Origin: Nitrospirae bacterium MYbin3
Lineage (GTDB): Bacteria > Nitrospirota > Thermodesulfovibrionia > Thermodesulfovibrionales > Dissulfurispiraceae
Length of the DNA stretch: 20,000 bases
Direction: 5' to 3'
Assembly (NCBI GenBank): GCA_002753335.1
Contig: PEAD01000015.1
Location: forward strand, 50,939 to 70,938
The position numbers were made by a program. Shown piece by piece: positions 15,001 to 20,000 of this stretch. The first letter of the stretch is position 1. Each line of letters opens with the position of its first letter.

Positions 15001-18000
15001 TGTACGATAGCGCATCTTCACAAAGCCTTGCGCCTTTGCATTTTGGACAGGTTTCTGGACTTCTGTACCTGCTGAGCAAAACCCTTACATGCAGCTTGTA
15101 CCGCTTTGCCTCCATATCCTCAAAAAAATCGTTTATGCCGTAAAAACCTTCTCCCCCTTCATAGAGTAGGGTCTTCTCTTCTTTAGAAAGTTCGCCAAAA
15201 GGCTTGCTCATGTCGAGGGCCGACTTTTTTGCGCCCTTTAGCATCTGTTCTTTCCACCATATATAGCCGGGCTTTTCCCAAATATTTATCGCACCCTCAG
15301 AAAGAGAGAGAGCCTTGTCCGGAACAAGCAGGTCTTCATCATACACAAGCACATTGCCAAACCCTTTGCACTCGCTGCAGGCGCACACTGGGTGGTTGAA
15401 AGAAAACATAATCGGGGAAGGCTCCGGAAGCGTTATGCCGCATTCATCGCATCTGTTTTGGCCAGAAAAACTCAAGACTTTAGGAAAACCTTCTTCTCCG
15501 AACACCAGTATCTTAAGCTGGGCCTTGCCCTCTTTCCATGCTGTTTCGATAGAGTCAGCAAACCTCGGCTCATCAAGGACCACAAGCCTGTCAACCACAA
15601 CCGTCAGCGGCATCGATATTGCGACCGGCTCAGAGATATCCAAAAAGAGTCCATCGAGCCAGAGTCTGTGAAACCCTCTCTGCATGAGGCTTTCACGGCC
15701 TTCTGCCGTCTCGAACGCTATAGCGATCCGCTTTGATTGATGCTGCTCCAATAGTTCGGCCACGACAGAGGACGGGTCCCATTTTCGTATCTCCCTGCCG
15801 CATTTAGGGCAGCAAGGTGTCGAGACCTTAGAATATACAATCCTCAGCAGGTCGTAAATCTCGGTCATTGTACCGACAGTCGAACGGGAGCCTTTCACCG
15901 GATTCTTTTGTTCGAGCGCAATCGCCGGCCTTATATTGCGTATTGCATCAACGTCAGGTCTGTCGAGTTTTTCTATAAACAGCCGGGCATATGTTGAAAG
16001 AGATTCGATAAAACGCCACTGACCTTCGGCAAAGATTGTGTCAAAAGCGAGTGATGATTTGCCGGAGCCCGAAACGCCGGTAATGGCAATAACCTTGTTA
16101 TGCGGAAGCCTCAAAAAGAGATTTTTGAGATTGTTCTGTCTGGCGCCCTCTATAATCAGTTCATGCTGAGACATCCTGATATTTTAGCATTTTCATTTGG
16201 CATCTACAGCGCTTTTCTTCTTGCCTCCGGCCTTAATAGCCTTGCCGTCCTTCACTTCGACCATGTCACCGATTTTTATTTCCTTAAGATCCACAATTGC
16301 TGTAGTTTCTCTGCCTTTATGGTCCCTTACCGTAATTGCATTCCCGTCAATGGCAATCACCGTGCCCCTGCAGTCTTCAGCAAAGGCAAAAGACGAAGAC
16401 AGGCAAACGATTAACCCAGTACAAACAGTCCAAAATCCAAGCTTTTTTTTCATACGCCTCCCTTTTTCACAATAAAAAATCGGGTGAATGCGCATAGCGC
16501 TCTCACCCGATAAAATTCATAGAAAAAATTAGCAGCCTTCGATAGCCTTCTTTTTCTTCTTGTCGTCCTTCTTAGGCTCAGCCTTCTTATCGTCAGCTTT
16601 TTTGTCGTCTTTCTTGTCAGCCTTCTTGTCGTCCTTCTTGTCAGCCTTTTTATCAGCTTTCTTGTCGTCCTTCTTGTCAGCCTTCTTGTCGTCAGCCTTA
16701 GCTTCAGCCTTCTTATCAGCCTTCGGAGCGTCTGCTGCGAAAGAGATAGAGGTCATAGCAAATGCAAACAGAATTGCAACTACAAGTGCGAGTACCTTCT
16801 TCATCTTTTGATTCACCTCCTTCCAATTTTTTTTATTAAGAAGCAACTTATGTGCCATCTTAATTCCGGTTATTTTACAATACTGCAAATTCCGAAAACA
16901 ATACTCATCTTTACCTTTTGAGGATTATCCGTTACCTTTTGGGAACTAATCCTCCATCGGCTTTATGAACATAAAGTATGTCATGGTCCAGTTGCCGAGT
17001 ATTATAAAAATAGTTGCCAATATGCTCTGAAGCGAAAGCGCCGACACACCTGTCAGCGAGTGCCCCACTGTTCAGCCACCGGCAACGGCAGCGCCGAATC
17101 CCATCACGAGCCCTCCGCAAAAAACCTTAAGAACTTCGGAGGCATCACGCGGAATAGTCAGCTTGAACTCGCTGAGCCCCTTAGCGCTCAAATATGCGCC
17201 TAGCGGAATCCCAAAAACATACAGAGCGCTCCACGAACCAGTTGCCACGCCCCAGAAATTGAACATCGGGTCTTTGGCCATGCTGTTGCCCATCGCCAGC
17301 ATTAATGCGGCCTCCGAGGTTGGACCTGCTGCAGAAATACCGCGCGCCTGTCCGCCATAATAGTAGGACGCCCACCACGCAATCATAACTGTCACGCCTA
17401 CGAGCGCACCGCCCACAGACCATGACCAGCCCTTTTTAGGCCCTTTGCCAAAAGGGTTCCCCCTTAGTATAACAATCAAAAAAATAAGCGTTATAATGCC
17501 TATTACCGGCCATTTCATTTCGGGGCCGCCCAATATGTCCCATAAGGCCGGGGAAGATATTGCGTTTTCCCCCTCGCCAATAGAAACCTTGTAACTTTTT
17601 ATATACTGACTTATCGGCTTAAGCGGTCCGTGCATTGTAGCAAGAAGCGACAGCACAAAACCGAAGGTCGTAACAAGAGCGGCCAGCTGCCCTTCGCCCT
17701 GTTTGTACAAAATGCCTGTGCCGCATCCGCCGCCCACCACTATGCCGAGTCCGAAAATATATCCCCCTACGATTGCGGCAATAGGAGCGAACGCTTGACG
17801 TCTGAGACCGTCCTCGCCCAGCATGCCGATGCTCTCCATGAGATTTGAGCCTATTATAGCGATGAAAAGCGCGAGAAACCATGCCCTAAAAAGCGTAATG
17901 TCGTTCACAAAGATCACGTCTCTGAACGCTGAGTTCATTCAGTATCTGCCACGCTGCAAAACAAAGCCGAGCATAACGCCTACGCCAAGACCGCTCAGCA

Positions 18001-20000
18001 AAACCATGATAGTTGCCTGTGGTATCTGCTCCATCACTACCTCCCCTTTAGTTTATTAAAAGGCCAAAGGCCTCCTGTGTAACCGGCAAAAAATAAATGC
18101 TATCTTTGTATCATAAAAAGGGGGGAAAAGTAAAACCAGCAATAAAAAAAAGCTAATACGCGGATGAGCTTTGTTTATATGCTTAAATCCAAGAATCGGT
18201 TTAGTGCGTATGTCAGAATTTTAAGAGTGCTTCTCATAAAAGCAGCAAATGAAATTATACCGCTATATCCGGCCCTGTCCCTTTAGTATCTTTACAAGCA
18301 GCTTTACAAGCTCCGGATCGAAGTTGCCCTTTTCTCCAGTCTCTTTAAGTATCTTCTCAAGGGCCGCAAACGGAGTGAGCGGCTGCTTAAACGGCCGCCT
18401 TGTTGTTAACGCATCGTAACAATCAACCAGCGATAATATTTTGCCGAACGGAGTTATGGCTATCCCTCTTAGTCCGAACGGGTATCCTAGTCCCGATACG
18501 CGCTCGTGATGCTGCTGTACACCAACAATTGCTTCCCGAGGAATTCCATTGTTCTGTATAAGGCTTATGCCGTCTGTAACATGTTTTTTCCAGATCACAA
18601 ATTCTTCGTTTGTAAGCGCCTCTCTTTTATGCAGTATTGACGAATGAAGATTCTTCTTTCCCACATCATGCATCATCGCTCCCATAGCAAGCTTCTCTAT
18701 CTGGGACTGATCCATTCCCATAGCAAGCGCAATGGCTGTTGACAACACAGCAACATTGGTGGAGTGATTATATAAATGCATATCACCGGCGCTGACTGTA
18801 AGCATATTGCTTAGAGTGGCCTCTTTGCGTCTCAGCACACTTATCACCTGGTTGGCCGAGACGACCACCCCGTCTATATTCTTGGAGCTGCCAGGGTCGG
18901 AAAGAAAGTCCCTAATGTTCATTTTTGCACTTTCTTTTATTCCGGCAATCTTAGCCTGCATAGCTGAACTATCCGTTGAAGAGGTTTTGGACAGGCCCGA
19001 GATATATTCCCTAAATAATTTTATATCCGCTATTTTTATAGCCAAGCCGCCCGAAACTGTTTTTATATTTTCTGTAACAGGAACATGTCTGTCTGGCATA
19101 GTTTCGATAAGCGGTGAAAACTGAGTGCCGACATTATTGAATATACTGAAATTCACCCTGGATCCGGGAGCAAAAACAAGCTTGCTGACATGATGGAATT
19201 CGTCTTTGGTTTTTGTGTATGAATGGTAATCTGGCTCTGCAGGTTTAGGTGCAGCGGAAGAAGGAGCCTTGAAAAACTCTTTAATCTGCGTTGGATCGCC
19301 TTCAACATACAGATACAAAATGCCTTTAGACTTCAAGGATGCTTTTATGTCCTGATCAAACTTGGTCCATTTCTTTAAAATACATGCATACCCGATGCCT
19401 TCTTTGCTGTAAACATCAAATGGAACCTTGAAGCCCAAAAGAAAAGATTCTATGCTTACCGGAACCTTGGGTTTTTGTGCAGTTCCGGCAGGACTTCCGG
19501 AAATAGTATTTTGGGCCACGCTTGAGTTCATATCCCCCCCCCCTTGTTATCTCTTCAAGTTGTTAATTCGTCATTGTTTAAATCAGAGCCAAGATTTACA
19601 ATGGCCTGCGAGAGTCATTCTTCGCGAAAGGCCTCTTCACGCTTCTTTGTCAGGGCAGGCAGGCTCGCAAGCACAACCGCCACAACTCCGAGCACAAGCA
19701 GGGTTGCGCTTATAGGCCGTGTGACGAAAACCGTCAAGTCTCCGCGCGAAAGCAGCATGGCTCTTCTGAGATACTCTTCCATCAGCGGACCTAAAATAAA
19801 GGCCAGAAGCATAGGCGCGGGCTCGCAGTCAAGCTTTGTAAACATATAGCCCAAAACCCCGAACAATGCCATCATGTATATGGAAAACTCGCTGTTATTA
19901 AGGCTGAAGACGCCGATTCCGCAAAAGACCAAAATGGCAGGAAACAATAACTGGTAAGGAACGCTTACCATTCTGACCCATATGCCGATTAAAGGAAGGT

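Follow-up and report, generated by a model that had tools for sequence, protein, structure and literature searches.

The analysed stretch of 20,000 nt from Nitrospirae bacterium MYbin3 (hereafter the window) carries at positions 16946..18037 of the reverse strand a gene for a YeeE/TsuA-fold transporter, a single frame that runs across two TGA codons. The frame has 363 codons from the GTG at 18037, with TGA at codons 33 and 322 only, and ends in TAG. The length of 363 aa given in a first-pass annotation is correct for the GTG; because a GGAGG ribosome site suits the ATG at 18034, the latter is favoured as the start, giving 362 aa. The TGA at codon 33 (17939..17941, reverse strand as for all features below; context GRY-U-MNSA) is predicted to specify selenocysteine (Sec) at the cytoplasmic channel position, equivalent to C22 of S. 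thermophila YeeE (role from PMC7449682, PMC11073785). In the alignment, Cys105 (TGC, 17723..17725; GGG-C-GTG) matches the middle channel cysteine C91, and the TGA at codon 322 (17072..17074; AGG-U-TVGH), likewise a predicted Sec, matches C293 at the periplasmic position. All three channel thiol positions are present, two of them as TGA, and the earlier description of one open frame with Sec at the first and third sites and Cys at the middle one was reproduced at 18037-16946.

Next downstream lies a gene for an ExtJ-type protein of 91 aa (16529..16804), followed by a second, ExtJ-like gene of 86 aa (16193..16453). A promoter and terminator scan at the locus gave chance-level results. Four of seven sequencing runs (shares at most 0.09) were examined; they consisted of contigs only, with no piece across the gene.

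Both TGA codons are followed by SECIS-like hairpins with 6-bp stems. Hairpin 1 (17908..17924) spans +15 to +31 after TGA 33 and has the loop CGUGA with G at +22; hairpin 2 (17040..17057) spans +15 to +32 after TGA 322, has GG at +22/+23 in its loop and shows compensatory pairs across relatives. The bSECIS model (PMC13188914) describes a stem of 4-16 bp, a loop of 3-9 nt, a G in the first two loop positions, a distance of 16-37 nt after the UGA and an MFE of at most -7.5 kcal/mol. Both sites have this geometry, the loop starting at +21 with G at +22. The gene's own hairpins fold at -8.2 and -12.6 kcal/mol, and most relatives miss the energy bar at site 1 (-2.4 to -7.0 kcal/mol), in a folding window that differs from that of bSECISearch.

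From the order (Thermodesulfovibrionales), 130 homologues were retrieved. Both TGAs are found in 38 of them and only that at the third site in another 21; at the middle site TGA occurs in 0 of 130, as had been claimed. Homologues without TGA have TGY at the two Cys columns, and no other stop codon occurs there (n = 130). Among the 30 best order loci, the earlier count (nine with both, nine with the third only, the rest with none) could not be recovered: we find 25 two-Sec, one third-only and four all-Cys genes. The 38 two-Sec genes form part of a single clade whose sister is the all-Cys paralogue; their genomes are kin and count as about one origin. Coexistence of two-Sec and all-Cys copies, previously put at five genomes, is real and was undercounted: it holds for 16 of the 38 two-Sec genomes, with 15 full copies and one cut at the 5' end. 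Three Sec-to-Cys reversions are nested in the two-Sec clade (L023 and L070 at site 1, L006 at both), and the AU test speaks against a two-Sec-only clade (p = 6e-6). Given these reversions and seven all-Cys genes that retain the ExtJ neighbour, Sec is dispensable in places. In a phylum sample of 301 genomes, two-TGA rows were confined to one family (f1) among the 150 matches listed of 327.

Over 41 rows of the clade the energies range from -2.4 to -8.2 kcal/mol at site 1 and average -11.5 kcal/mol at site 3, in agreement with the ranges given before (-2 to -8 and -8 to -14 kcal/mol). The caveat that the first hairpin is weak is right as to energy; the element is nevertheless real, because its 15 nt (codons 39-43) are invariant in 38/38 two-Sec genes whose silent sites are otherwise saturated (mean four-fold-site identity 0.35). 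Only six of 198 scored codons (39-43 and 330) are at least 95% fixed among synonyms in these genes, all of them in the two hairpins; in 22 all-Cys paralogues two of 205 codons are fixed, none within the hairpin regions. The site-1 stem is fully paired in 38/38 TGA genes versus 4/91 Cys genes, the site-3 stem in 36/38 two-Sec and 15/21 third-only TGA genes versus 1/70 Cys genes. When the hairpins were folded singly and compared with shuffles, the z-scores (0.4 to -0.6) did not reach significance, and the case rests on these comparative counts. A post hoc hairpin rule drawn from the two sites was rejected as a general SECIS test, because 121 of 103,754 TGA triplets of the genome pass it while those of SelD and MccSep fail. 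The first element, thermodynamically weak and invariant in sequence, is of a kind that energy filters would drop.

The segments outside the two TGAs are under purifying selection, with pN/pS (37 genes) of 0.23 before the first TGA and 0.075 in the last 28 codons. The genome holds selA, selB, selD and tRNA-Sec (selC), and selD itself contains a TGA. From the TGA/Cys pairing, the selected hairpins, the purifying selection beyond the TGAs and this Sec machinery, selenocysteine is almost certainly inserted at both UGA codons. An alternative genetic code was rejected. That the TGAs are true stops in a split or decayed gene, of which only the Met34-Gly321 piece is made, or that they are read as Cys or Trp, is highly improbable. 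A Met does stand right after the first TGA, databases call exactly this piece (61 records), and TGA is a common, normal stop in this genome (455 of 1424 long ORFs). Against this, TGA alone occurs, and at the two Cys columns alone, in 38 genomes despite the silent saturation; hairpins track TGA, both outer segments are constrained, and the piece would be without two helices and two of the three channel residues. With 61 database proteins being such between-TGA fragments, these genes may be misread in surveys of YTD clusters and in those of selenoproteomes. In a set of 150 representatives at 50% identity, a clustering that hides close relatives, no sequence combines a start after site 1 with an end before site 3.

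PF04143 (YeeE/YedE) matches over the whole model (positions 1-310) with 222 bits (gathering cut-off 27). The AlphaFold model (pLDDT 91) superposes on 8K1R with Z 46.2 and an rmsd of 2.1 A over 322 aligned residues, the next unrelated fold reaching Z 5.8, and the modelled protein has the YeeE hourglass fold. The reported TsuA-like E-value of 4e-68 was reproduced (NF052577, 4.4e-68), at a score of 230 bits that stays under the cut-off of 400; the second TsuA model, NF041049, gives 158 bits (cut-off 645). The label "thiosulfate-type" is unsupported, since the protein falls below both cut-offs, no yeeD or tusA adjoins and the neighbours indicate sulfane sulfur or polysulfide. We found no yeeD/tsuB in the window and no member of the TusA cluster (c20) beside the 38 two-Sec loci (1.5-3 kb flanks); TusA-like genes lie elsewhere in the genome. 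An ordinary TsuA-type thiosulfate importer, with Sec as a drop-in for two cysteines and no covalent chemistry, is a rather unlikely reading. In its favour, TsuA is the closest solved structure and the best NCBIfam model, the periplasmic-loop Arg (R232) and the YeeD-binding residues are conserved, and Cys reversions are viable. Against it, beyond the low scores and the lack of tusA/yeeD neighbours, an ionised selenol should donate poorly to the S-H...S bonds suggested at C293 and C22, and MccSep does not use thiosulfate (PMC13510729).

The neighbouring genes give further direction. In the 91-aa protein, a signal peptide predicted by eye is followed by a Lys/Asp/Ala low-complexity linker that replaces the ExtJ beta domain and by the C-terminus KKKKKAIEGC; a signal peptide with a poly-Lys-EGC end is also seen in two NCBI-named ExtJ records. 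The 86-aa protein keeps the beta domain and has the tail SAVDAK without Cys, and the same arrangement occurs in a congeneric genome. The ExtJ model NF040942 (cut-off 52.5 bits) does not match the 91-aa gene and gives 39.8 bits for the 86-aa gene; syntenic genes of relatives pass with 77.5, 76.5, 64.4 and 59.5 bits, and one low-complexity gene fails with 17.1. An EGC-tailed secreted gene lies within 900 nt downstream of 35/38 two-Sec, 2/21 third-only and 7/69 all-Cys genes, and beside 0/16 Cys paralogues in genomes with both copies. This link of two-Sec YeeE genes with a downstream ExtJ-type EGC protein is new here. ExtJ-like proteins ending in Gly-Tyr instead of Gly-Cys exist (L206), some ExtJ copies are located away from yeeE, and 64/68 family genomes have an ExtJ-profile match of some kind. 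A complex prediction for an all-Cys homologue (P0057) and its ExtJ neighbour scored 0.01, a value that stands without folded controls.

For 11-13 of the 38 two-Sec genes, a DsrE-like gene with two small genes, of which only the 100-aa gene is shown to be DsrE-like, lies at most 1.3 kb away; the trio is absent from the window and tblastn did not find it in the genome. MccSep/ExtKL, a demonstrated polysulfide reductase (PMC13510729), is encoded 1.7-12 kb from the transporter in seven extended loci and directly adjoins all-Cys YeeE in six genomes of another family. MYbin3 itself has MccSep and dsrA, and a cluster of TusA with DsrE/F/H-like genes lies 22 kb away. The MccSep link is loose: in an evenly drawn sample, 65/131 order genomes had MccSep, 5/13 two-Sec genomes had it no more than 20 kb away on the contig of the transporter, and it was not detected in G030, a complete two-Sec genome. 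In several of these loci, MccSep is preceded by a gene for an ArsR-type regulator, and G069 has an extI-x-extJ-mccSep run.

These observations suggest that the transporter probably moves sulfur species. With middling confidence, we propose a two-Sec inner-membrane transporter of the YeeE/TsuA fold that would pass sulfane sulfur, either polysulfide or persulfide sulfur bound to a protein, out of the periplasm to TusA/DsrE-type carriers in the cytoplasm, with selenium at the predicted periplasmic (U322) and cytoplasmic (U33) mouths and cysteine in the middle. Selenolates, with a selenol pKa of 5.2 (PMC13510729), would attack S-S bonds, giving short-lived Se-S adducts where sulfur enters (U322) and leaves (U33), instead of donating hydrogen bonds. 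The secreted ExtJ-type neighbour may act where the channel opens to the periplasm, and its C-terminal Cys might carry sulfur there; the conserved cytoplasmic face (R39, K112, E115, E290) could serve TusA as a docking site in trans.

We think it quite improbable that the protein is instead a selenium importer or sensor (selenite, selenide, selenosulfate), with the supply of selenium switching between the Sec and the Cys paralogue. YedE-like proteins have been tied to selenium transport (PMC9312934, PMC11582611), the operon that gave ExtJ its name is associated with selenite reduction, MccSep reduces selenite too (PMC5877670, PMC13510729), and Sec and Cys copies are kept together in 16 genomes. 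Yet the selenium-metabolism YedE/FdhT models failed (NF033796, 84 of 350 bits; TIGR04112, 44 of 200 bits), no sel genes occur among the annotated neighbour clusters, MccSep prefers polysulfide sevenfold (PMC13510729), and an importer needing two Sec would be expected to fail when selenium is scarce. Little credence also goes to a conduit for signalling or export rather than bulk import, either a SoxT1B-like signal to a repressor or sulfane-sulfur export to periplasmic MccSep. The YeeE-family protein SoxT1B does have a signalling role (PMC11582611), a gene for an ArsR-type regulator stands ahead of MccSep, and sequence gives no transport direction; however, adjoining DsrE-like carriers and a reductive Dsr in the genome suit mass transfer, and the characterised members are importers.

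Within the proposed sulfane-sulfur import, one can imagine a five-centre relay across the inner membrane of anaerobic sulfur-cycling bacteria, from the ExtJ C-terminal Cys via Sec322, Cys105 and Sec33 to a TusA/DsrE Cys, although we consider it unlikely as a whole. ExtJ would then be a SoxY-like swinging arm, in some lineages cut down to signal peptide, tether and tail. If true, the relay would give ExtJ a function, reveal a transporter that uses covalent selenium chemistry and provide the step, so far missing, by which S0-derived sulfur is taken into the cytoplasm during elemental-sulfur disproportionation in Nitrospirota. For sulfur movement through the YeeE fold, two mechanisms come into question, hydrogen-bond guidance along three thiols or covalent hand-over. 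A point against the covalent reading is the distance of ~7 A between the thiols of S. thermophila YeeE, too large for direct atom transfer in the view of the SoxT authors (PMC11582611). Sec at the two outer thiols and never at the middle one, in genomes that also keep a closely related all-Cys copy, offers a matched pair to decide the mechanism. Dissulfurispira thermophila, a cultured disproportionator, probably allows a test of the two-Sec form in an isolate, since both ends of its record WP_203472006.1 (289 aa) coincide precisely with the two sites.

Compared with the thiosulfate importer YeeE/TsuA (S. thermophila, PDB 6LEO/8K1R; E. coli TsuA with YeeD/TsuB), the Nitrospirota form has the same fold (Z 46, 33% identity), three channel positions and cytoplasmic docking residues. 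It differs in the predicted Sec at the outer and inner positions, the scores below the TsuA cut-offs, the lack of an adjoining yeeD and the secreted ExtJ-type gene next downstream. YeeE/YedE (PF04143) is catalogued as a one-Sec selenoprotein family with the motif GUxSG (WP_012471001.1; table of PMC13188914), with five proteins in five organisms (supplement of PMC5029168). Both forms belong to one Pfam family and have UGA at a conserved Cys, but ours has two Sec, RY-U-MN and GG-U-TVGH do not fit GUxSG in a comparison of motifs, and its GCxSG-like middle position remains Cys. The two-Sec form does not appear in the sections of these two catalogues available to us, nor is YeeE/YedE mentioned in the main text of PMC2398784.

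YTD or yeeE-tusA-dsrEFH type II clusters are known from sulfur disproportionators and cable bacteria (PMC13293266, PMC12998232, PMC9751629), and type II has been proposed as a polysulfide importer (PMC13293266). Two-Sec loci, in contrast, are without adjoining tusA, have the dsrE-like trio in only some cases and differ in the ExtJ neighbour; the accessible portions of PMC13293266 and PMC12998232 do not mention selenium for such clusters. The Geobacter extHIJKL operon encodes the rhodanese ExtH, the porin ExtI, ExtJ and the polysulfide reductase MccSep/ExtKL (PMC5877670, PMC13510729). A KKKKAIEGC-type ExtJ tail and MccSep also occur near the two-Sec transporter, but ExtJ follows an outer-membrane porin there and an inner-membrane two-Sec transporter here. 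SoxT1A with SoxYZ in Hyphomicrobium (PMC11582611) is a YeeE-fold importer to which a carrier in the periplasm, bearing a terminal Cys arm, is believed to deliver sulfane sulfur. Whereas SoxT1A is all-Cys and belongs to an aerobic Sox context, the two-Sec transporter is found in an anaerobe, with predicted Sec and with ExtJ as the only candidate carrier.

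The transporter gene is a single 363-codon frame on the reverse strand (window 18037-16946) with TGA at codons 33 and 322 as its sole interruptions, as the first-pass annotation had described; translation with table 11 yields just the 288-aa piece between the two TGAs. Since a GGAGG ribosome-binding site lies 5 nt upstream of an ATG at 18034, the protein is probably 362 aa long; residues are numbered here along the 363-aa form (P0001). The PF04143 match of P0001 spans the whole model, and an AlphaFold model (66 sequences, pLDDT 91) retrieved YeeE structures at Z 44-46, the next fold scoring 5.8. 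U33, C105 and U322 (sites 1, 2 and 3) align to C22, C91 and C293 of S. thermophila YeeE. In the accessible text of PMC7449682 and PMC11073785, C293 sits at the periplasmic substrate site, C22 at the cytoplasmic face adjoining YeeD C17, and R28, R98, E101 and E261 bind YeeD; their equivalents in P0001 are R39, K112, E115 and E290.

P0001 had matches in 263/317 genomes of the order Thermodesulfovibrionales. Among 130 homologues taken from the best 150 of 735 matches, including every two-TGA row of those 150, 38 rows in 38 genomes have TGA, Cys and TGA at the three sites (the two-Sec form; 36 in the family of the window, 2 in family f13), 21 have TGA at the third site only, 69 are all-Cys and 2 are cut short. 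TGA occurred in none of the 130 at site 1 alone or at the middle site, which bears out the earlier claim that the middle Cys is never Sec. The earlier tally for the 30 best loci (nine two-Sec, nine third-only, the rest none) was not reproduced, the 30 best here being 25, 1 and 4. Co-occurrence of a two-Sec gene and an all-Cys paralogue, reported for five genomes, was confirmed, the number being 16.

Each TGA is followed by a hairpin whose 6-bp stem begins 15 nt beyond it and which has a G at +22. This geometry agrees with the bacterial SECIS model described in the available part of PMC13188914. The window's own gene also passes the energy limit of that model (-8.2 at site 1, -12.6 at site 3), whereas the site-1 hairpins of most relatives fall short of it. 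The site-1 stem has its six pairs complete in 38/38 TGA genes versus 4/91 Cys genes, with a C-G/U-A exchange at the base; the site-3 stem occurs in 36/38 two-Sec and 15/21 third-only TGA genes versus 1/70 Cys genes, with G-C/C-G and C-G/U-A exchanges. In the 38 two-Sec genes, which are kin of approximately one origin, only 6 of 198 scorable codons use a single synonym in at least 95% of cases, namely codons 39-43 (AGA GAC GTG ATC TTT in 38/38) and 330, against an average identity of 0.35 at four-fold sites. Two of 205 codons were fixed in 22 all-Cys paralogues, located elsewhere. The strength of this test lies in the saturation of silent sites everywhere outside the hairpins. Values of pN/pS outside the TGAs (0.23 and 0.075; 37/38 genes) indicate purifying selection. 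The recurrence of the two-TGA form is real and beyond chance, and we infer Sec at both channel mouths; that the TGAs are not recoded at all is hardly credible.

The host, whose named relatives are Thermodesulfovibrionales/Nitrospirota, has selA, selB, tRNA-Sec and a selD that itself contains a TGA in a 93.7% complete genome. An alternative genetic code was ruled out because TGA terminates 455/1424 of its ORFs of at least 300 aa. The genes selA (36/38) or selB (the remaining two) were found in all two-Sec genomes; as 287/317 order genomes carry selA, its presence does not discriminate.

A quick tree was built from the full set of 130 rows, and a careful one from 58, omitting 14 near-duplicate or partial rows and most of the distant rows. 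Two-Sec genes form one clade (99/97), sister to an all-Cys clade (99/97), with L023 and L070 (third-only) and L006 (all-Cys) nested inside. A clade restricted to two-Sec rows was rejected (AU p 6e-6), in keeping with reversion of these three from the two-Sec state; the site-1 block is already partly eroded in the reverted genes. P0001 and its two closest relatives, L012 and L006, make up the basal branch of the clade and have paralogue-like residues at 236, 237, 246, 265 and 277 (codons 236-277), where other two-Sec genes differ. The host's second YeeE is all-Cys and distant. A distant YeeE subfamily member in another genome, G491 (L172:2656-3645), carries a TGA at the first site (RGRF-TGA-MLSTC), followed by Cys at the second and Asp at the third. 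Sec may have been gained independently at site 1 here; the Met directly after this TGA is also where P0287 begins. No selB was found in the G491 genome (83% complete).

Downstream of the transporter lies the ExtJ-type gene (window 16529..16804, reverse strand). At 35/38 two-Sec loci, a small secreted protein with a poly-Lys-x-EGC C-terminus is encoded within 900 nt downstream; two of the others show a gene start and then the contig end, and one lacks an EGC-tailed gene. Such neighbours occur at 2/21 third-only and 7/69 all-Cys loci, and after 0/16 Cys paralogues in genomes holding both copies. Several exceed the ExtJ cut-off, and NCBI-named ExtJ proteins share the C-terminal ending. In the window's gene and at least two other lineages a Lys/Asp/Ala tether replaces the folded domain, signal peptide and tail being kept. 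The link should not be over-interpreted: ExtJ copies are also found next to c7 cytochromes or housekeeping genes, and some have Gly-Tyr tails. In genus g8 (L192-L196) the second copy has a two-component system on one side and a c7-type triheme cytochrome on the other. In G029 (L206:163-10604), a genome without a close transporter orthologue, an ExtJ-like gene beside trmJ ends in GGY, and a second, with the tail GAPGY, lies near a rhodanese, a different YeeE and TusA. In P0191 and P0192 a YeeE homologue is fused behind a predicted signal peptide and a long tether of low complexity, whose repeated GY/GGYG motifs look like the Gly-Tyr tails seen in some ExtJ-like proteins; this hints that GY-type tethers may act at the periplasmic face of YeeE.

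By eye, the window also holds a type IV pilus-like run (1-6827, reverse strand; pilM-Q, prepilin genes) and a housekeeping run (7796-16174, reverse; rseP, dxr, cdsA, uppS-like, uvrA). An HD-GYP protein gene lies upstream of the transporter (18263-19531, reverse), and HD-GYP or response-regulator cluster members precede yeeE at several loci. Beyond the window, 22 kb from the transporter on the same contig, the host encodes TusA with a DsrF-, DsrE- and DsrH-like cluster (G000:C46:44452-45835; L174:6456-7836); 5 kb further, selD stands between two apparently TauE-like membrane genes. The host also has dsrA and a gene for the polysulfide reductase selenoprotein MccSep/ExtKL (G000:C11:71163-72446, L148; one TGA with hairpin). 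MccSep lay 1.7-12 kb from the transporter at 7/16 extended two-Sec loci, and at one more it lay at 19 kb; five of the MccSep-bearing loci had been chosen with its presence already known. This association, too, calls for caution, as MccSep was present in 65/131 sampled order genomes and was not found in the complete genome G030. In six f8 genomes (L164, L165, L187-L190) an all-Cys yeeE directly precedes a five-heme MccSep-like gene without TGA.

Because the selenol pKa is 5.2 (PMC13510729, seen in part), Sec at both mouths would be a selenolate, a strong nucleophile toward S-S bonds but ill suited to donate the S-H...S bonds that have been put forward for TsuA; sulfane sulfur would therefore be handed over at channel entry and exit, a reading to which we give about an even chance. 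Thiosulfate import is unlikely, and selenium uptake, like signalling or export, is improbable. A relay from ExtJ through Sec, Cys and Sec to TusA is doubtful. That a covalent chain is obligatory is made less likely by the thiol spacing of 7 Å in YeeE (stated in the accessible part of PMC11582611) and by the fact that reversions are viable.

In the parts of the literature on YeeE/YedE selenoproteins, ExtJ and Dissulfurispira that we could consult, no two-Sec YeeE and no ExtJ-YeeE link was found; BSepDB entries or survey supplements may hold the form. According to the available text of PMC13326102, the D. thermophila genome was among those screened for BSepDB, which can deal with multi-Sec genes but retains only TGAs aligned to Sec of a known query. 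Among 120 homologues listed plus cluster members, 61 records are fragments running from MN(S/T)A to AGG, D. thermophila WP_203472006.1 among them, and we infer that both its ends are TGA. In 11-13 of the 38 two-Sec loci, a DsrE-like gene accompanied by two small genes is found no more than 1.3 kb away, a trio not found in the host genome that recalls the YTD/dsrEFH type II cluster (as far as described in the accessible parts of PMC13293266, PMC12998232 and PMC9751629). The run at L203:3008-6475 in G069 (Nitrospirota), with an extI porin gene, a 105-aa gene, extJ and a TGA-split mccSep, corresponds to a Geobacter-like ext operon. Published tables (PMC13188914, PMC9312934 and PMC5029168, the last with 5 proteins; each consulted in part) count YeeE/YedE among the predicted selenoprotein families, with a single Sec in the motif GUxSG, a motif that neither TGA site of the transporter fits. 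The two-Sec transporter is a new form within a selenoprotein family already known, and its gene partner is new as well.
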